From a virus (Duplodnaviria; Caudoviricetes), in IMG/VR virus record IMGVR_UViG_3300017938_000004, positions 1-24,244 of that record: a stretch of DNA of 24,244 nucleotides. One strand, 5' to 3'. The notes beneath the pieces are model-generated. The model did no database searches. It saw only the letters and a program-made list of their open reading frames with translations, and was not told the DNA's origin. Both the position numbers and the translations under genes were made by a program. Below, one piece after another: positions 1 to 24,244 of this stretch. The first letter of the stretch is position 1. Each line of letters starts with the position of its first letter.

Positions 1-70
1 GACAAGATAGCCGAATATCGTAGAAAGAACAAAGACAAGATAGCCGAACAAAAAGCTGAATATTATAGAA
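1..70. repeat. Terminal direct repeat (circular assembly overlap), copy 1
   Basis: Identical to 24175-24244. Confidence 0.95.
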
Positions 71-189
71 AGAACAAAGACAAGATAGCTGAATATTTAG
101 CTGAATATTATAGAAAGAACAAAAGGCAGAGAATGTCAGAGAGATATTCAAAATTACTAAAAGGGGGTCTCAATTCCTCCCAAGCTTGA
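1..189 (+). CDS. 3' part of the origin-spanning YYRKNKDKIAE-repeat protein (starts at 23944)
   Basis: Frame 1 is open from base 1 to TGA 187-189 and ends KGGLNSSQA; in frame with ATG 23944 after circularisation (139 aa). Confidence 0.85.
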   Translation, partial: DKIAEYRRKNKDKIAEQKAEYYRKNKDKIAEYLAEYYRKNKRQRMSERYSKLLKGGLNSSQA

Positions 190-220
190 AAGCATGGGTA
201 TCCTTGAGACGATTATATGA
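159..220 (+). repeat. Right-end hairpin element R, copy in cassette 2 (62 bp)
   Basis: Identical to 3444-3505; imperfect palindrome GTCTCAA..CCCA-A-GCT-TGAA-AGC-A-TGGG..TTGAGAC; ends in ATGA. Confidence 0.95.
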
Positions 221-630: not shown

Positions 631-1518
631 ATGGAAAAAAAAGAGGTAGATAAAGAAGTAAAAGTCCAAAAGTCAAGCTTTTACTTGTTCTTATTCAATC
701 GCATCAAGGAGGGAAAAACACCTTCTTCTATTTCTAAGGAGTATCAAATCCCTAAGCAAAAGCTCCAATATTATCTAAATCAGCTGAAGAAAGGAGGTTT
801 CATAGAAAAAGTCGGTTACAAATCATGGAAAGTAAAAGTAAAAGAGTTCTCGTTAGGAACGAGACCGACAACCAACCTTCATGCCTTACAAATCAATATT
901 CCTATTCTTTCAGGGGAAATCAAGGGGTCGGACTGGGAAGTAAAAGAAGAATTAAGAAACTGGACTCCAAAATACAAAACTTTGGACATCTTAGGAGGTC
1001 TTACCATTAAAAACAATAATAATAAATCTATCAGCATCTTTGCTCATTCAAGGGATTTGAAGGAGTTGAAGGAGATTGATGCCCTTTCTTATGATATAGT
1101 AAATTTCGCATTAGAATGGTTTAAGCGAGACTTTAATGTAACTCTTGACTTGTTCAATGCAGAAGTCAAATCTCTTCATATCGCCACTCAAGATAAAGTA
1201 AGCGAAGATATGCAGAAGCAAGGAGATAGGTTTGAATTGGACTTGCAGAAGAAGGCAGAAAAGGTTTTTCCTAAAGATAAGATAGACGGAAAAGCATGGA
1301 TTGATGGTTCTCCTTTCACTTTTACAGCAGAAACAAATGATAAGGAATGGAAAAGAGCTTACTTGTCTATGCCTTTTATGATGGAAGAAATAGCAAAAGC
1401 AACCCATTATATCGCATTAAACTATGCTTCCCATGTCAAACTGGTAGAAAAAGCAAGTAAAGTAATGGAGAAGCTGGATAAAAGATTATCTCAAACTAAA
1501 TTAACGGAGTTCCTATGA
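631..1518 (+). CDS. Winged-HTH protein with uncharacterised C-terminal domain (candidate replication initiator)
   Basis: N-terminal TPSSISKEYQIPKQKLQYYLNQLKKGGFIEK wHTH pattern; LHAL, LHIA, WIDGS and ETN motifs; replication role is inference only. Confidence 0.6.
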   Translation: MEKKEVDKEVKVQKSSFYLFLFNRIKEGKTPSSISKEYQIPKQKLQYYLNQLKKGGFIEKVGYKSWKVKVKEFSLGTRPTTNLHALQINIPILSGEIKGSDWEVKEELRNWTPKYKTLDILGGLTIKNNNNKSISIFAHSRDLKELKEIDALSYDIVNFALEWFKRDFNVTLDLFNAEVKSLHIATQDKVSEDMQKQGDRFELDLQKKAEKVFPKDKIDGKAWIDGSPFTFTAETNDKEWKRAYLSMPFMMEEIAKATHYIALNYASHVKLVEKASKVMEKLDKRLSQTKLTEFL

Positions 1519-1954: not shown

Positions 1955-2058
1955 AAGAAAAAATACAGAAAATCTTGTTCAAGATAGGAGAAGCAATCCT
2001 TACAGGATTAGGAGTTACAATAGGCGCTTACTTGGCAGGAGTAGTGATAAGAAGATGA
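1951..2058 (+). CDS. Small membrane peptide (35 aa, not in ORF track)
   Basis: MKEKIQKILFKIGEAILTGLGVTIGAYLAGVVIRR; ATGA overlaps at both ends; GxxxG motifs. Confidence 0.7.
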   Translation: MKEKIQKILFKIGEAILTGLGVTIGAYLAGVVIRR

Positions 2059-2597
2059 AAGTTTGTTTATATGCAAGAGTTTCAAAAGAAGAAGAAGGAA
2101 TGCAAGACCCAAACAATCAGCTTATTCCTTTAAGAAAATTCTGTGAATCAATGCAATGGGAAATAAAAAAAGAATTTATTGACAGGGCTTCTGGAGGTTC
2201 TGCAAACAGACCAGCATTTCAATTAATGTTAAGTGAAGTAAAGCAAAGGCATTTTGATTTGATTCTTATTTGGGCATTAGACAGATTTTCAAGAGAAGGA
2301 ATTGTTAGCACATTAAAATATTGCCAACTTCTTAATGATTATAAAACTTCCTTAAAGAGTCTGCAGGAATCATGGTTAGATACAAGAGATGAAGGCATGG
2401 GGCAATTAATGTTGGCAATGATGGCTTGGTTTGCCCAACAAGAAAGAAAAAGAATAAGTGATAGAACAAAAGCAGGATTAAAACAAAAGAAAGAAGAAGG
2501 GAAGATTTTGGGAAGACCAAAGGGATGGAGAAAAAGTAAAATAAAAGGGGTTCAAAATCCTTCTTATAAAAACACTCAAAAAGAGGTAGAGGTTTAG
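2055..2597 (+). CDS. Serine recombinase, resolvase/invertase family (180 aa)
   Basis: MKVCLYARVS catalytic Ser motif, DRASG, RPAF, LDRFSR, ERKRISDRTKAGL...GRP; start reassigned from 1908 to ATG 2055; no clear C-terminal HTH. Confidence 0.95.
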   Translation: MKVCLYARVSKEEEGMQDPNNQLIPLRKFCESMQWEIKKEFIDRASGGSANRPAFQLMLSEVKQRHFDLILIWALDRFSREGIVSTLKYCQLLNDYKTSLKSLQESWLDTRDEGMGQLMLAMMAWFAQQERKRISDRTKAGLKQKKEEGKILGRPKGWRKSKIKGVQNPSYKNTQKEVEV

Positions 2598-2610
2598 ATG
2601 TCCGTTTAAT

Positions 2611-2790
2611 ATGCAATTTGAAATAATCCAACTAAAAATGGGAGGATGGAAGAAACTGAAATTTCCAAGAAGATGCAAAGTATGCAACAAAGTATTAGGC
2701 AAACAGAACAAATCAGGAATCTGCTCTAATTGCTCTCTTGAAATTCGTCAAAAAAATCAACATGACATACTCCCATACCCTAAAGGGTAG
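2611..2790 (+). CDS. Small Zn-finger protein (59 aa, not in ORF track)
   Basis: RRCKVCNKVLGKQNKSGICSNC; its stop codon lies inside element L. Confidence 0.65.
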   Translation: MQFEIIQLKMGGWKKLKFPRRCKVCNKVLGKQNKSGICSNCSLEIRQKNQHDILPYPKG

Positions 2791-2811
2791 GGTATCTTAA
2801 AGAAAATGGAA
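2762..2811 (+). repeat. Left-end hairpin element L, copy in cassette 1 (50 bp)
   Basis: Identical to 23900-23949; ATGACATACTCCCATACCC-TAAA-GGGTAGGGTATCTTAAAGAAAATGGAA; stem TACCC/GGGTA. Confidence 0.95.
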
Positions 2812-3474
2812 ACAAAAACAATAAAGATTTTGAATTTATATGCTGGAATTGGTGGAAATAGAAAACTATGGACAGGAGATATAGAAGTTACGGCAGTAGA
2901 GAATGTTCCAGAGATAGCTAAGATATACCAAGACTTTTTCCCTAATGATAAGGTAATAGTAACAGATGCACACCAATTTTTATTAGAACATTTTAAAGAA
3001 TTTGATTTTATATGGAGTTCTCCACCTTGTCCAAGTCATAGTAGGATAAATACTATGTTAGTAAATGGAAGAGGGTTTAAAGCAAAGTTTCCAGATATGA
3101 AACTTTATGAAGAGATATTGTTTCTACAAGCATACTTTAAAGGGAAATGGATTGTTGAGAATGTTAGAAGTTTTTATACTCCTTTAATTAAACCACAAGA
3201 AAGAGGTAGACATTATTATTGGAGTAATTTTGAGATAGGATATTTAGGAAAAAGTAAGAAAGTTAGGAATGATAAAGGTTCAATTTTGAGTTTAAAAATG
3301 AAAGATAGAGAAATGGTTGTTAGTGATTTTAAAGATTATAAAGGGGATAAAAGGACTTTGATAAATAATTGTGTAGAACCTATTGTAGGATTATTAATAT
3401 TTGAAATGGCTTTCAAGAAACCACAAAAAACTTTATTAGAACAAAAAGGGGGTCTCAATTCCTCCCAAGCTTGA
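2806..3474 (+). CDS. Orphan C5-cytosine DNA methyltransferase (222 aa)
   Basis: Motif I LYAGIGG, motif IV SPPC, motif VI ENV, RGRHY; last 9 aa encoded by element R. Confidence 0.9.
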   Translation: METKTIKILNLYAGIGGNRKLWTGDIEVTAVENVPEIAKIYQDFFPNDKVIVTDAHQFLLEHFKEFDFIWSSPPCPSHSRINTMLVNGRGFKAKFPDMKLYEEILFLQAYFKGKWIVENVRSFYTPLIKPQERGRHYYWSNFEIGYLGKSKKVRNDKGSILSLKMKDREMVVSDFKDYKGDKRTLINNCVEPIVGLLIFEMAFKKPQKTLLEQKGGLNSSQA

Positions 3475-3505
3475 AAGCATGGGTATCCTTGAGACGATTA
3501 TATGA
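3444..3505 (+). repeat. Right-end hairpin element R, copy in cassette 1 (62 bp)
   Basis: Identical to 159-220. Confidence 0.95.
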
Positions 3506-3807
3506 ACACAAAAGAATTCTTCACTAAGTGGAAGCAGGGAATAGAAGCAATAACACCTTACCAGCAAGTCAGGGGTCAGTTATTCAGCATAATCCCAATC
3601 TTCATAGGAATTATCATAGGAATAATAGTAACAATAAAATCTCATACTTGGTGGCTTGTCTTAATTTTAGGTGGCTCTTTAATCCTGACTTTCTTCCAAT
3701 TTATAGGAATGCTGCAAAGATTTTTAAGGTTGAGAGTCCAAAGAGATATTATGAAGTCCATGCAGGATGTGATTCCAGGAGGTTCAAGTGAAACCAAGAC
3801 TCCTTAG
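3502..3807 (+). CDS. Two-TM membrane protein (101 aa)
   Basis: Two hydrophobic helices; start codon at the end of R. Confidence 0.8.
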   Translation: MNTKEFFTKWKQGIEAITPYQQVRGQLFSIIPIFIGIIIGIIVTIKSHTWWLVLILGGSLILTFFQFIGMLQRFLRLRVQRDIMKSMQDVIPGGSSETKTP

Positions 3808-4006
3808 ATTTCTTGCAGGGCTTTCAATAGCTTCTTCTCTTATGTTTATTCTTAGTAACATTGCAGCAATAAATGATGTAATGAAAGCAAACATTCCAAA
3901 CAAATTTCCCATTTATCTTGAAGCCATCATTTATCTTGTTCTTCTCATCGTTGATTTGATTGTCGCATTTCAGCTGTGGGAAAAGGCAAAGAAGAGGTTA
4001 AAGTAA
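3788..4006 (+). CDS. Two-TM membrane protein (72 aa)
   Basis: GTG start after GGAGGT; two hydrophobic helices. Confidence 0.75.
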   Translation: MKPRLLRFLAGLSIASSLMFILSNIAAINDVMKANIPNKFPIYLEAIIYLVLLIVDLIVAFQLWEKAKKRLK

Positions 4007-4007
4007 T

Positions 4008-4526
4008 ATGGTAAATAATTGTTTATGGTGTGGAGAACCAATTTTAGAAGGAATAAATAGGGAATATCATCCAATTTGTGTTAAAAGGAAATATAATTTT
4101 AATAATAGAAAAAAAGCATCAGAGTATTTCCAAAAGAACAAGGAGAAGATTTATTCAGTTAAGAGAATTTATAACATTAAAAATAAGGAAAAAATAGATG
4201 AAATAAAAAGAAAGTATAGGATAAAGAATAGGGAAATTCTAAATAAAAAGGCATTAAAACATTCTAAAAAAAATAGAGACAAAATAAATAAATATCATAA
4301 AGAATGGAAGAAAAATAACAAAAAGATAGTTAATGCAGAAAATCAGGCATCTATAAAAATTCAATTATTAGATTCTTGTCAAATTTGTGGAAGTAAAGAG
4401 AATCTACAAAGACATCACTGGGATTATAACAGACCATTATTAGTTACTACTTTATGTAAAGATTGTCATAGAATTCAACATATAAAGAACTTTGAAAACA
4501 GTTTCTTTGGGAGGGTATCTTGTTAG
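4008..4526 (+). CDS. HNH endonuclease with N-terminal Lys-rich helical repeats
   Basis: CQICG...LQRHHWDY...LCKDCHRIQH; YxxKNKEKI-type repeats; N-terminal CxxC...HxxC. Confidence 0.85.
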   Translation: MVNNCLWCGEPILEGINREYHPICVKRKYNFNNRKKASEYFQKNKEKIYSVKRIYNIKNKEKIDEIKRKYRIKNREILNKKALKHSKKNRDKINKYHKEWKKNNKKIVNAENQASIKIQLLDSCQICGSKENLQRHHWDYNRPLLVTTLCKDCHRIQHIKNFENSFFGRVSC

Positions 4527-4792
4527 GAGATGTCTGGGATTGGATAGCAGAAAAAACAGGAGAAAGCTGGGAAACATTCTTAGGATATTTTTCTAATCTT
4601 AATGAATTCTCTACTCCTGGATTAGTTGGAGGAATAATCTGCATGGGCTTTATTTTCTTCGTAAGGGGAAAACTTCTCAATCCATTCATCAAGGCAATGC
4701 CAGTAGCTCAAGGTGTTATAACTTATATTATTTGTTTTGCAGGAGCATTTATTGTAGGATACTTATTCATGAAGAGGGCATTTGAACAATGA
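4520..4792 (+). CDS. Two-TM membrane protein (90 aa)
   Basis: TTG start after GGAGG; two hydrophobic helices. Confidence 0.75.
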   Translation: MLGDVWDWIAEKTGESWETFLGYFSNLNEFSTPGLVGGIICMGFIFFVRGKLLNPFIKAMPVAQGVITYIICFAGAFIVGYLFMKRAFEQ

Positions 4793-6647: not shown

Positions 6648-6869
6648 ATGTTAGGAAATTTAATAACTGGGTTCTTGATTATTCTCGTTGGAGTAAATTT
6701 AGCCCCAACAGTTGCTAACCAGGTAGCTGCACAGACAAGCAATACAAACTTCACAAACGGCTCTTCTGCTGTTCTTAGTTTGGTTACATTGTTCTTTGTC
6801 CTTGCAGTCGCTGTAGCAGCAATGGATATAGCTGTCGTTGGACTCAGACAATCAGGACTTATAATTTAA
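6648..6869 (+). CDS. Major capsid protein, spindle-virus type, paralogue 1 (73 aa)
   Basis: Two hydrophobic helices joined by a short loop with sequons NFT and NGS; GGAGG RBS; architecture of SSV1 VP1/VP3 and His1 MCP. Confidence 0.8.
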   Translation: MLGNLITGFLIILVGVNLAPTVANQVAAQTSNTNFTNGSSAVLSLVTLFFVLAVAVAAMDIAVVGLRQSGLII

Positions 6870-6889: not shown

Positions 6890-7153
6890 ATGTTAGGAAA
6901 TTTAATTACAGGATTCTTGATTATCTTGGTTGGAGTGAATATAGCTCCAACAGTCGCATCACAAGTCCAGGTAGCAGTTTATCCATGGTCAAACGGAACA
7001 GGGCCAGGAGCAAACTTGACCCCAAGCGATAACTTCACAAACGGTTCAGGAGCAGTGCTTACACTTGTAACACTATTCTTCGTTTTGGCAGTTGCTGTTG
7101 CTGCGATGGATATTGCAGTAGTAGGCCTTAGACAATCAGGACTCGTCATATAA
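6890..7153 (+). CDS. Major capsid protein, spindle-virus type, paralogue 2 (87 aa)
   Basis: Helices almost identical to 6648-6869, with a 14-aa longer loop carrying four sequons. Confidence 0.8.
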   Translation: MLGNLITGFLIILVGVNIAPTVASQVQVAVYPWSNGTGPGANLTPSDNFTNGSGAVLTLVTLFFVLAVAVAAMDIAVVGLRQSGLVI

Positions 7154-16878: not shown

Positions 16879-17592
16879 ATGGAACAAAAAAAGAAAATAA
16901 TATCTGAAGAAACGAGAAAAAAGATTAGCGAAGCCCTTAAAGGAAAAAAGTATCCAAGAGAATTGTATCCAAATCGTTCTACAACAGGAAAGAAATATAA
17001 ATGGAAAGTAAAAGATTTTATTCCTAAAAATTTAAATGTATTCATAGAAAGTGGAAAGAATACAAGATTCAATAAAAATATTATTCCTTGGAATAAAGGA
17101 TTAACAAAAGAAACAGATGAAAGAGTGAAAAAATATAGTGAAAATTTAAAAGAAATAGCTAAAACAGGAATATTTATTCCAAATTCTCCATTCACTAAAG
17201 GGCATAAGTCTTATACTCCAGAACATCTTTCTGAAGAACAGAAGAGAAAGATAGGAATTAAGAATAAAGAACATAGAAAATATCAGGTATTTCCTATTAA
17301 GGACACTTCAATAGAACTAAAAATACAATCATTCCTTAAGCAGTTAGGCATAGAATACATTGCTCATGGATATATGCACATTGAACATGGTTATCAATGC
17401 GACATTCTTATCCCTTCAACTAAAACAATAATAGAATGTGATGGAAACTACTGGCACAAATATCCTAATGGAACAGAGATAGACCATATTAGGACAAAAG
17501 AATTAATAGAAAAAGGTTATAGAGTAATAAGATTATGGGAGCATGAGATTAAGAAAATGGACTTAAATCAATTTCAGGGGAAAATTTTATGA
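16879..17592 (+). CDS. Free-standing homing-type endonuclease: NUMOD3-like repeats plus DUF559/Vsr-like PD-(D/E)XK domain
   Basis: SEETRKKISEALKG, PWNKG, HLSEEQKRKIG; TSIE...CDI...IECDGNYWH...GYRVIRLWEHEI. Confidence 0.85.
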   Translation: MEQKKKIISEETRKKISEALKGKKYPRELYPNRSTTGKKYKWKVKDFIPKNLNVFIESGKNTRFNKNIIPWNKGLTKETDERVKKYSENLKEIAKTGIFIPNSPFTKGHKSYTPEHLSEEQKRKIGIKNKEHRKYQVFPIKDTSIELKIQSFLKQLGIEYIAHGYMHIEHGYQCDILIPSTKTIIECDGNYWHKYPNGTEIDHIRTKELIEKGYRVIRLWEHEIKKMDLNQFQGKIL

Positions 17593-20214: not shown

Positions 20215-20354
20215 CAGCACAAAAAGCTAAAGATACAGAATCGTTTTTTAGAGAAATACAATTAAGAGGAATGATAGCAAAGCAAAGTCCTTTTTATTGG
20301 ATAAGATATAAGATTTATAGGATAAAAGAATATCTATATTATTATTTAACATGA
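20211..20354 (+). CDS. Small ORF in slot A (47 aa, MTAQK..., not in ORF track)
   Basis: ATGA overlaps at both ends. Confidence 0.65.
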   Translation: MTAQKAKDTESFFREIQLRGMIAKQSPFYWIRYKIYRIKEYLYYYLT

Positions 20355-20426
20355 CACAAAAACAAACAAAACAAACAGAGGAGAGCAAAGAATGAAAACT
20401 AAAAAAGAAATACTAAAGATGACTGA
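20354..20426 (+). repeat. 73-bp direct repeat, copy 1 (micro-ORF, RBS and MKTKKEILKMT)
   Basis: Identical to 21585-21657. Confidence 0.95.
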
Positions 20427-21584: not shown

Positions 21585-21657
21585 ACACAAAAACAAACAA
21601 AACAAACAGAGGAGAGCAAAGAATGAAAACTAAAAAAGAAATACTAAAGATGACTGA
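21585..21657 (+). repeat. 73-bp direct repeat, copy 2
   Basis: Identical to 20354-20426. Confidence 0.95.
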
Positions 21658-21859
21658 AAAAGAACTTCAAGATTATAAATGGAGTTCTGATTTAGATATT
21701 AAAGAAGAGAAGAAAGAAACTAACTCTGACTGCTCTGACTGCTTTAACTGCTCTAACTGCAGAAACATAAAAACATATTCGAAGTTTATGATATGCAATG
21801 TTCAGCTTACAGAAAAAGAATACAGAAAGAAGATGAAGGAGTTGAAGAATGAAAACTAA
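21623..21859 (+). CDS. Cys-repeat protein with MKTKKEILKMT leader, variant B (78 aa)
   Basis: NSDCSDCFNCSNCRN encoded by 9-bp tandem units; MICNVQLTEKEY. Confidence 0.8.
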   Translation: MKTKKEILKMTEKELQDYKWSSDLDIKEEKKETNSDCSDCFNCSNCRNIKTYSKFMICNVQLTEKEYRKKMKELKNEN

Positions 21860-22253
21860 AATAACTGAAACAGAAACAGAATACATAGTTAACGGCGACT
21901 TGATACTTACAGAAGATTTCAAGATTTCAAAGCATCTCATAGTTCATGGAGATGTTGAAGGAAAAGACGGCGAGAGATTTAACATAAATGCACGGAACAT
22001 AGATGCAGGGAACATAAATGCATGGAACATAGATGCAAGGAACATAGATGCAAGGAACATAAATGCATGGAACATAGATGCAAGGAACATAAATGCATTG
22101 GACATAAATGCATGGAACATAGATGCATGGAACATAGATGCAAGGAACATAATCTGCGAAACTCGTGTTAAGAAAGATAAGAAATGCAAAACAATAGCGA
22201 GAATTTACATTAAAAATAGAAGCAAAATAAAGAGGAAAGAACATGACGACTGA
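21849..22253 (+). CDS. Pentapeptide-repeat (beta-solenoid) protein, paralogue 1
   Basis: 11 units of [ND]I[DN]A[RWGL]; IVNGDL...LIVHGDV beta-helix-like N-terminus. Confidence 0.85.
   Translation: MKTKITETETEYIVNGDLILTEDFKISKHLIVHGDVEGKDGERFNINARNIDAGNINAWNIDARNIDARNINAWNIDARNINALDINAWNIDAWNIDARNIICETRVKKDKKCKTIARIYIKNRSKIKRKEHDD
21981..22151 (+). repeat. 15-bp tandem array (11 units)
   Basis: RACATARATGCANNG units. Confidence 0.95.
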
Positions 22254-22653
22254 AACAGAAACAGAATACATAGTTAACGGCGACTTGATACTTGAAGAAG
22301 ATTTCAAGATTTCGAAAAATCTCATAGTTCACGGAAATATTAAAGGGAAAGACGGCGAGAGATTTAACATAGATGCATTAGACATAGATGCATGGAACAT
22401 AGATGCAAGGAACATAGATGCAAGGAACATAAATGCAAGGAACATAAATGCAGGGGACATAAATGCATGGGACATAAATGCAGGGGACATAGATGCAGGG
22501 GACATAAATGCAGGGAACATAAATGCATGGAACATAAATGCATTAGACATAATCTGCGAAACTCGTATTAAGAAGTTAAAGGAATGCAAAACAAAGGCGA
22601 GAATTTACATTAAAAATAAAAACAAAATAGAGAGGAAAGAATATGACGACTAA
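22243..22653 (+). CDS. Pentapeptide-repeat (beta-solenoid) protein, paralogue 2
   Basis: 12 units; flanks nearly identical to paralogue 1. Confidence 0.85.
   Translation: MTTETETEYIVNGDLILEEDFKISKNLIVHGNIKGKDGERFNIDALDIDAWNIDARNIDARNINARNINAGDINAWDINAGDIDAGDINAGNINAWNINALDIICETRIKKLKECKTKARIYIKNKNKIERKEYDD
22366..22551 (+). repeat. 15-bp tandem array (12 units)
   Basis: Same unit as 21981-22151 with variants in a different order. Confidence 0.95.
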
Positions 22654-23275
22654 AACAGAAATCTGCTCGTGTGGGCATGAAAGAAAAGAACATAAAAATG
22701 ATTATTATATGATGGGTTCTCAAAAGATAGTTGAAGAAGATGTATGTTGGCATAAAGAAGGTAATTATTATAATTGCTCCTGTAAAAAGTTCACACCTCA
22801 AACTCCCGAAGACAAAAAGCCAAAAGTATTTATTGAAAGAGCAGAGCCATTAACAATAGAAGGAATAAGAGCAATTTGTATGAATGATGAAGATTATGCT
22901 AAATATAGAAAGGACAAAACTTCGGGGGATTTTTGTTTGAGTGATAAGATTTTGAGTAGAGTAAATCAAGTTAATGAACATTTTAAAGAATTAGATAAAA
23001 GGAAATTACCTTATGATATTAGAGAAAGAGCATTAATGACTTCTCTACCTTTGGTTATTCAAAATGATGTAAAAGAATTCGTGCGGAGATTGAAGTCTAA
23101 ATTTAAAGATGGATGTGGAATGGGTTTTACTTGGAATGACCAAGATGCCACTTGTGGAGATGATTTTGAATATGAAGGTAAGATTAAAGTTATCTTATGT
23201 TCTACTTGTCTTGAAAAGATAAAAGAAATAGACAAACTGTGTGGTTCAAAATTATCAGGAGAAAAAGATGCCTAA
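22643..23275 (+). CDS. Cys-rich hypothetical protein (210 aa)
   Basis: CSCGHERKEH...C...CSCKKF and C-terminal Cys motifs; MTTKTEI leader. Confidence 0.8.
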   Translation: MTTKTEICSCGHERKEHKNDYYMMGSQKIVEEDVCWHKEGNYYNCSCKKFTPQTPEDKKPKVFIERAEPLTIEGIRAICMNDEDYAKYRKDKTSGDFCLSDKILSRVNQVNEHFKELDKRKLPYDIRERALMTSLPLVIQNDVKEFVRRLKSKFKDGCGMGFTWNDQDATCGDDFEYEGKIKVILCSTCLEKIKEIDKLCGSKLSGEKDA

Positions 23276-23624
23276 GAAAGGATATATCAAAACAGAAGAG
23301 CATAGAAAGAAACTAAGTAATTCTATTTTAGAATCTGATAAGGGTTTTCAGAAAGGACATCAGACTTGGAACAAACAAGGGAAAGGCAGACTTAAAAGAA
23401 AGTTCAAGAGAGTAGAAGGCAAGATGATACTTAACTCTCATCACGTTTGGCTTATGCACAATAATCTAAAGACTATACCTAAAGGGTATATAATTCATCA
23501 CAAAGACCTAAACTCTATGAATGATGACATCTCTAATCTTATCTTAATGACTGATATTGACCATAAGAAATTGCATGGAGAGTTAGATAGAAAACGATTT
23601 ATGGCGGAGGAAAAATTAATATGA
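23268..23624 (+). CDS. HNH endonuclease with NUMOD3-like N-terminus (118 aa)
   Basis: KTEEHRKKLS, FQKGHQTWNK; IPKGYIIHHKDLNSMNDDISNLILM...HKKLH; start reassigned to ATG 23268 after AGGAG. Confidence 0.9.
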   Translation: MPKKGYIKTEEHRKKLSNSILESDKGFQKGHQTWNKQGKGRLKRKFKRVEGKMILNSHHVWLMHNNLKTIPKGYIIHHKDLNSMNDDISNLILMTDIDHKKLHGELDRKRFMAEEKLI

Positions 23625-23779
23625 TTAGAACTGAAATTTGTGGGTGTAAATATCTTTTGGATATAGATGGAACTAAAACTTTCGTAGCATTTTGTAAAGA
23701 ACATTCTTTTCTTAATTTTGGAAGGCATCCAAATCAAATAAAACCAATTGTAAAATCGGGGGAAAAATTAAGCAAATGA
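23621..23779 (+). CDS. Small Cys/His protein (52 aa, not in ORF track)
   Basis: MIRTEICGC...FCKEH; GGAGG RBS; ATGA overlaps at both ends. Confidence 0.7.
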   Translation: MIRTEICGCKYLLDIDGTKTFVAFCKEHSFLNFGRHPNQIKPIVKSGEKLSK

Positions 23780-23899: not shown

Positions 23900-23949
23900 A
23901 TGACATACTCCCATACCCTAAAGGGTAGGGTATCTTAAAGAAAATGGAA
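23900..23949 (+). repeat. Left-end hairpin element L, copy in cassette 2 (50 bp)
   Basis: Identical to 2762-2811. Confidence 0.95.
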
Positions 23950-24244
23950 CTAAAGCAATTTATAAAACAAATACCAACACCAGAAGAAACACTTGTTGAT
24001 TATGATAAAAAGATAGCCGAACAAAAAGCTGAATATTATAGAAAGAACAAAGACAAGATAGCCGAATATCGTAGAAAGAACAAAGACAAGATAGCCGAAT
24101 ATTTAGCTGAATATTATAGAAAGAACAAAGACAAGATAGCCGAATATTTAGCTGAATATTATAGAAAGAACAAAGACAAGATAGCCGAATATCGTAGAAA
24201 GAACAAAGACAAGATAGCCGAACAAAAAGCTGAATATTATAGAA
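23944..24244 (+). CDS. 5' part of the origin-spanning Lys/Glu/Tyr helical-repeat protein (139 aa total)
   Basis: MELKQFIKQIPTPEETLVDYDKKIAEQKAEYYRKNKDKIAE...; open to the window end; 33- and 45-bp units. Confidence 0.85.
   Translation, partial: MELKQFIKQIPTPEETLVDYDKKIAEQKAEYYRKNKDKIAEYRRKNKDKIAEYLAEYYRKNKDKIAEYLAEYYRKNKDKIAEYRRKNKDKIAEQKAEYYR
24175..24244. repeat. Terminal direct repeat, copy 2
   Basis: Identical to 1-70. Confidence 0.95.

Follow-up and report, generated by a model that had tools for sequence, protein, structure and literature searches.

The two gene cassettes in the 24,244-nt stretch of viral DNA analysed here (the window) are very probably transposase-less, cargo-carrying members of the IS200 family, placed or moved just before an ATGA start codon by a Y1 transposase (TnpA) acting in trans. 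We regard this as the best explanation because of the anatomy of the ends, the covariation of guides and cleavage sites, the existence of relatives with the order L-tnpA-cargo-R, a series of tnpA deletions, one site found empty, and cargos that are nearly identical although their flanks are unrelated. Gene shuttling before start codons by these units is likely, and we did not find such a use of the IS200 family described.

Ends and cargos of the two window cassettes

A search for maximal exact repeats returned L, of 50 nt (2762-2811 = 23900-23949), and R, of 62 nt (3444-3505 = 159-220), exactly the duplications that an earlier note on this DNA had claimed. Only two other exact repeats of at least 20 nt occur outside the tandem-repeat genes of the window. 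The window also carries a terminal direct repeat of 70 nt (1-70 = 24175-24244), and the virus contig, C3 of bin G000, is a circle of 24,174 unique bases. Two cellular contigs share this bin, whose genome of 530 kb has an estimated completeness of 92.5%; no copy of L or R was found on either of them. A link between virus and host is suggested by the binning, and the small genomes within the host's order point to a host of DPANN type. Judged from its sequence, the virus looks like one of the spindle-shaped type, with a 73-aa gene at 6648 matching a PHROG virion protein and the PDB chain 7xdi_A 'VP1' (E 2.8e-5), which we take to be a fusellovirus protein. This gene is the first of two tandem paralogues encoding VP1-like hydrophobic proteins (6648-6869 and 6890-7153). 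A sigma-70 scan of the window gave 7 sites against 3.8 expected, for a promoter type that is wrong for archaea. The features of the cassettes and their surroundings are the following.

2055..2597, plus strand: serine recombinase (PF00239), a neighbour outside the system
2762..3501, minus strand (the active or 'top' strand): element 1, non-autonomous IS200-type cassette of 740 bp, placed by guide/cleavage geometry and comparison of 64 cassettes
2762..2765, minus strand: right cleavage site CR, TCAT (ATGA on the plus strand), within element 1, 10 nt from the hairpin foot
2772..2792, minus strand: subterminal hairpin of the right end (RE), in L, DNA fold of -5.6 kcal/mol
2793..2796, minus strand: right guide GR, GATA, from sequence and guide/site covariation
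2806..3474, plus strand: cargo 1, compact C5 cytosine DNA methyltransferase of 222 aa (PF00145, E 2.1e-7; phrog_363, E 1.4e-12)
3452-3458/3489-3495: outer stem extending the hairpin of the left end (LE), from compensatory variants
3464..3483, minus strand: LE subterminal hairpin, in R, DNA fold of about -10 kcal/mol
3484..3487, minus strand: left guide GL, GATA, from sequence and 18-nt spacing
3502..3505, minus strand: target CL, TCAT (ATGA on the plus strand), start of the downstream 101-aa gene, outside element 1
23900..23949, minus strand: right end of element 2 (L copy), with CR 23900-23903, hairpin 23910-23930 and guide 23931-23934; identical to 2762-2811
23944..24244 and 1..189, plus strand: cargo 2, helical repeat protein of 139 aa with EYYRKNKDKIA-type repeats, ending in LE
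159..216, minus strand: left end of element 2 (R copy), with hairpin 179-198 and guide 199-202; identical to 3444-3501
217..220, minus strand: target of element 2, the ATGA start of the 63-aa gene 217-408

Element 2 thus listed spans 23900 across the origin to 216 (491 bp). Read on the minus strand, R consists of TCAT, 14 nt, GATA and a hairpin, and L of GATA, a hairpin, 6 nt and TCAT; by this reading of the sequence, R is the LE and L the RE of an IS200/IS605-type element. Both ends have imperfect subterminal hairpins, and terminal inverted repeats are absent. The cleavage sites lie 18 nt (left) and 10 nt (right) from the hairpin foot, compared with 19 and 10 nt in IS608, for which PMC3201880 places the left site outside and the right site inside the element, each recognised by a 4-nt guide 5' of the hairpin. 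The left-end spacing among 55 cassettes was 18 nt in 36 and 21 nt in 17. The earlier assignment of the ends to the IS200/IS605 (HUH Y1) type is upheld by the hairpins, the guides, the cleavage spacing and the TnpA-bearing relatives. Because of the guide/cleavage-site geometry, the final ATGA of R is the start codon of the target and lies outside the element, contrary to the view that R supplies the ATG of the next gene. At the other end, related right ends that begin with ATAA or GTAA show that the leading ATGA is part of the element.

As a general rule, guide positions 1, 2 and 4 pair with site positions 2, 1 and 4; the rule fits the pair AAAG/TTAC, and GATA gives TCNT, as at both window ends. 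We found guide and site matched in 29 of 31 related right ends (loci L014-L109, window copy included), which fell into the classes GATA, GAAA or GAGA with TCAT, AATA or AAAA with TTAT, and AAAG with TTAC. The Fisher test of this covariation (p ~1e-6) is overstated since the elements are kin. The set was gathered via the R pattern with the site fixed as T-Y-A-Y in the search, and the count refers to right ends only, the left-end guides being set by the search pattern. The match between guide and cleavage site is retained in transposase-less cassettes. No Rfam match was obtained in the window at E values up to 1.

Both repeats overlap the cargo reading frames, in agreement with the earlier observation that L supplies the ATGGAA start and R the last nine residues (KGGLNSSQA) and the stop. 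In cargo 1, whose translation shows PC and ENV motifs, the last 9 codons and the stop lie inside LE. The cargo 2 frame, from 23944 across the origin to the same KGGLNSSQA terminus, appears once the terminal repeat is removed. Its product matches phrog_17714, of unknown function (E 4e-11), has no nuclease domain, and shows a low-complexity match to the repeats at the N-terminus of the endonuclease-like gene 4008-4526; an atlas search gave a best score of 0.89, with viral clusters. The zinc-ribbon ORF upstream of element 1 (2611-2790) enters L and takes its final residues and stop from it; the insertion therefore altered its C-terminus.

Other features of the window were recorded along the way. 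Two different genes (MKTKKEILKMT) have their starts within a 73-nt exact repeat (20354-20426 = 21585-21657), and 5' ends are common to further unrelated genes at 217/20351/23776 and at 550/22240/22640; there may be a second, hairpin-free route of gene-start shuffling in the accessory region. Two adjacent paralogues of five-residue repeats (IDARN/INAWN) at 21849-22653 are 89% alike over 289 nt, with no match in Pfam or PHROG. Three homing-endonuclease-like genes are present in this 24-kb virus: the HNH-like 4008-4526, 16879-17592 (NUMOD3 with DUF559/Vsr) and 23241-23624 (HNH_3).

A family of cassettes and its transposase

Pattern scans of IMG/VR returned 4, 9 and 66 stretches, and a scan of a metagenome set gave 121 in the part scanned, from which about 350 are estimated; R was present in 14 of 401 genomes of the host's order, and an exact 25-mer of R had no match in IMG/VR. 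Among 135 distinct L copies, 64 were followed by R: 50 of the 57 with at least 1 kb of sequence and 14 of the 78 with less. R was never on the opposite strand from L (0 of 152 L matches). In the reverse direction, L was detectable for 34 of the 54 R copies with 1.4 kb upstream. Three of the 20 others have tnpA upstream; the remainder could be ends that stand alone or sequences that match by chance. The supposition that L and R occur as pairs in relatives largely holds when starting from L, with 7 of the 57 L copies lacking R; 20 of the 54 R copies stand without a detectable L. The exact window L was found in 9 other cassettes, and the window R variant in none of 62.

The 64 cassettes span 181-2330 bp and hold one to four passenger genes. 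We scanned 70 ORFs of at least 55 aa from 59 of them. A DNA-methyltransferase family was matched at or above the Pfam cut-off in 21 cassettes, and 5 more had a weak or generic methyltransferase match; a lenient count, combining three methyltransferase clusters and singletons, reached 32 of 64. By sequence, then, a third to a half of the cassettes carry methyltransferases, the rest being mostly unrelated unknown genes; one holds a PAPS-reductase domain. The 65 cargo proteins other than TnpA fell into 35 clusters, so that the predicted variety of genes between L and R was indeed encountered. The cargo stop lies in the R hairpin in 36 of 49 cases and on the TGA of the target in 12. Two parts of the earlier proposal require amendment: the family varies its cargo as supposed, yet it is not wholly non-autonomous, since transposase-bearing members also exist, and delivery is not confined to viral operons, family members being found on cellular as well as viral contigs.

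The same R also ends tnpA-only, TnpB, IscB and short PATE-like elements. IscB-like genes ending in R were seen at L022, L048, L061 and L072 (RRXRR and HNH confirmed for L061), a TnpB element ending in it at L088, and a fused L/R mini-element consisting of termini only at L159:798-860. A second IS200 lineage with similar ends occurs in genomes of the host's family (L080, L084, L091, L094, L100; L083, L096, L097, L101, L106, L109); its tnpA occupies the top strand and has a long open frame antisense to it, it also has PATE-like copies of 170-200 bp, and all lie before host ATGA starts.

In six of the 64 cassettes (L009, L161, L175, L178, L179 and L188) a Y1 transposase gene lies between L and the cargo, on the cargo strand, giving the layout L-tnpA-cargo-R; an L/R pair around a TnpA had been named beforehand as a finding that would favour mobility. 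The six proteins match the Y1_Tnp profile with E values of 1e-32 to 1e-35, and the in-cassette TnpAs retain the HUH histidines (H-x-H) and the tyrosine; a TnpA profile matched the IS608 and ISDra2 transposase chains in the PDB. The ends of L179 keep the first 37 bases of the window L unchanged and 44 of 49 bases of R. Seventeen TnpAs are at least 53% identical to that of L179, most of them recovered via end patterns and one (L262) via the protein alone. Cargo and then R follow downstream in 13; in the other 4 the sequence breaks off after 73-1020 nt. The viral contig of L262 has, in addition, two tandem cassettes without transposase (L001), in which R is broken off mid-hairpin. No TnpB or IscB family was found among 14 scanned cargo ORFs of the L179-like elements. 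TnpAs that are 90% alike carry unrelated cargos, a PAPS-reductase in one case and an N6/N4-methylase in the other. The end of tnpA joins the next gene at ATGA in 7 of 17, and the last tnpA codons persist behind L in L011, L120, L124, L160 and L182, remnants that make up a deletion series towards the form seen in the window. In a tree, 14 TnpAs formed one clade (99/97), which is weak evidence since its members had been chosen for their identity to the query. Some autonomous elements have a 46-aa ORF between L and tnpA (L261:2865-3002), with weak ribbon-helix-helix matches (E 0.004-0.016) below the cut-offs. The C-termini QLKLGDFF and QTKLTEFL (TnpA of L161, L178 and L188; window 631-1518) presumably fit a PCNA-binding PIP box; if so, the transposase would be tied to archaeal replication forks.

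No transposase is encoded in the window, as had been stated: a TnpA profile gave no match in G000, virus contig included. A weak match on contig C1 proved to be a thioredoxin-like gene. A close TnpA was found in 2 of 301 genomes of the host's family (68% identity) and in 3 of the 80 best IMG/VR loci, and none above 47% in the 37 of 64 parts of GTDB scanned. The two window copies may now be stranded, with no TnpA nearby.

Target sites, movement and exchange

The 3' boundary of the cassettes is ATGA in 49 of 64 and ATAA in 6. After in-silico excision, 27 of 39 targets were start-like, against 184 of 1273 background ATGAs, and 35 of 39 were open for 40 codons, against 460 of 1273. Selection against disruptive insertions contributes to this excess of start-like targets. 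In 13 of 43 cassettes an upstream ORF has its stop codon in the leading ATGA, as its TGA (146 of 1281 in the background). In one case, a chromosomal cassette with a 70-aa cargo (L082, genome G190) separates a hypothetical gene from an RsmB-like gene at the ATGA in which the stop of the one overlaps the start of the other. In G414 (L233) the overlap is intact and preceded by the same 8 bases. Among 30 RsmB loci of the genus, the same upstream gene was present in 6, and the cassette was absent in 5 of these. This one exact empty site is a comparison between species (74% protein identity) and not between strains. Insertion thus takes place at a tetranucleotide without net target duplication, as seen from the ATGA ends and from this site. 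In addition, cargo interiors were 97% (L157/L225), 94% and 91% identical in unrelated flanks. L157 and L225 carry a cargo related to that of G190 in two other flanks, and the cargo of L039 and L087 is identical at 431 of 477 nt. Three tandem arrays were seen (L130, L171, L172); L is itself a possible target because it starts with ATGA.

Empty-site alleles in relatives, which the earlier note had named as possible support, are represented by a single chromosomal case, and none was found for the two insertions of the window. Relatives of the downstream 101-aa gene, sought in IMG/VR for this purpose, were not found; a further search gave one 66% relative, on a 1.2-kb contig. A loose end of run X6 at 217 was considered as an empty site and turned out to be the paralogous gene start at 23776. 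Contigs of 8 of 18 runs showed neither empty alleles nor the RE-LE circle junctions that had likewise been suggested, these being low-depth contigs that drop rare forms.

Near-identical cargos were found with different R or L variants (L157/L225, L130/L186, L039/L087), and in some R ends the two halves of the outer stem cannot pair with each other, most variants being compensatory. Cargos and ends have probably been regrouped through recombination within the end cores, and the R variant that the window copies share with none of 62 others points to local recombination or conversion besides transposition. These observations are also what speaks for the strongest rival explanation, namely that the ends descend from IS200 but serve only as short homology or regulatory modules, comparable to the PeSLs of T4-type phages, the cargos being swapped by recombination with TnpA uninvolved. 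The other shared gene-start sequences of the virus, including the 73-nt repeat, and the lack of TnpA in G000 go in the same direction. Yet recombination needs ends already on site, whereas the G190 site is empty in congeners and has a precise ATGA junction; guide/site matching is kept in transposase-less cassettes, and an intact TnpA exists with the same ends. We consider this explanation unlikely.

Exchange of cassettes by the neighbouring serine recombinase, with L and R as its attachment sites, is very improbable. The gene adjoins element 1, 165 nt upstream, but no relative of it occurs in 59 other cassette loci (163 kb), so that the linkage expected of an IS607-like or att-site system is lacking, L and R have no common central crossover core in inverted-repeat arms, and the ends show HUH-type guide/site geometry and occur with Y1 TnpA. 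Of the two enzymes that the earlier note had offered, supply in trans is the one favoured, since relatives have tnpA flanked by the same ends. An integron-like arrangement, with folded attC sites as cassette boundaries, deserves practically no weight: single-gene units, single-strand hairpins and the tandem arrays recall them, but each gene here has two different ends instead of the one attC site of an integron cassette, the junction is ATGA, Y1 TnpA is the only recombinase found inside the units, and no integron integrase (IntI) was found among the 35 window ORFs scanned; the attC analogy drawn earlier is not supported. A duplication of L and R created by collapsed or chimeric assembly is just as negligible; the contig closure does fall within the tandem repeat of cargo 2, where the repeat number is uncertain, but both exits of L and both entries and exits of R were seen in independent Logan unitigs (runs X5 and X7), L copy 1 is crossed by single unitigs of X8 (2517-3038), X6 (2661-3473) and X14 (2714-2903) and R copy 1 by one of X7 (2932-4600), and the same layout recurs in 62 other cassettes, contrary to the mis-assembly that had been feared.

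Proposed mechanism and comparison with known systems

On this basis, we propose that TnpA supplied in trans would act on the minus-strand ends of the window units, which would be excised as a single-strand circle and re-inserted at TCAT. Insertion at a stop/start overlap would preserve the upstream stop and the downstream start, both being kept because the element's own end also reads ATGA, and the cargo, from its start in L to its stop inside R, would join the operon. Less firmly, recombination in the conserved hairpin cores and where tnpA meets the cargo might swap cargos and end variants, and methyltransferases might be retained as cargo for protection of viral DNA from host restriction. 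A broader reading is possible, though somewhat short of probable: the units would form a gene shuttle of DPANN-type archaea and their viruses, built on the ends of a peel-and-paste transposon. A large stock of cassettes without a transposase of their own would depend on a single TnpA clade, and their ends would also act as junctions for translation, the whole amounting to an integron-like library of DNA-modification genes run by an HUH transposase. If this is true, the start would come from L, the C-terminal tail and stop from R, and ATGA would be regenerated on both sides; any gene could then enter an operon without breaking its neighbours, be stacked in tandem and be swapped between ends.

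TnpB, IscB and Cas9/Cas12 derive from IS200/IS605 elements, which to our knowledge are treated as cargo-free. A natural cargo-carrying subgroup would demonstrate natural gene movement by single-strand transposition and would explain the reshuffling of methyltransferases in viruses of very small archaea. It would also supply a small, start-codon-targeting, operon-preserving gene-insertion system made of a 185-aa enzyme and two short ends. We found no published description of cargo-bearing IS200/IS605 elements or of this family in the openly readable literature searched, which also gave no IS200/IS605 example of a transporter IS (tIS) with such cargo. We know of no transposase or guide/target logic in the PeSL model of T4-type phages. 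PMC10691335 notes that no cargo had been known for IS200 and IS605 before, and reports rare cargo beside TnpB only. tIS are likewise IS derivatives with passenger genes (PMC9330008), and PeSL cassettes likewise consist of short conserved modules around variable viral genes (PMC2839356).

The window family has in common with the IS608/IS200 group the one-strand subterminal hairpins, the guides, sites at about 19 and 10 nt and, in its transposase-bearing members, a Y1 HUH TnpA (PMC3201880; PMC13565253). It differs in that passenger genes take the place of TnpB, tnpA and cargo are on the bottom strand, both window sites are TCAT, mimicking a 4-bp duplication, and most family copies have no tnpA. 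Covarying guides, trans-mobilised copies and flexible boundaries were reported by Meers 2023 (10.1101/2023.03.14.532601), where the word cargo is absent from the portions consulted. PATEs, which are short and non-coding by definition (Dyall-Smith 2011, PMC3119063), resemble the window family in being transposase-free and trans-mobilised with IS605-type ends, and the core-deleted L159 has this form (PMC3119063; 10.1101/2023.03.14.532601). In contrast to PATEs, the family carries intact genes fused to its ends, such as the window ORFs of 222 and 139 aa. The IscB or TnpB gene with omega-RNA that defines ISC/IS1341 (OMEGA) elements was not found in the window units. ISC and IS605B elements have N|ATGA targets (Kapitonov 2016, PMC4810608); like the window family, they insert just before ATGA, have their gene read towards the ATGA end and are mostly non-autonomous. 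Unlike in these elements, the slot holds methyltransferases and unrelated genes in place of an RNA-guided nuclease.
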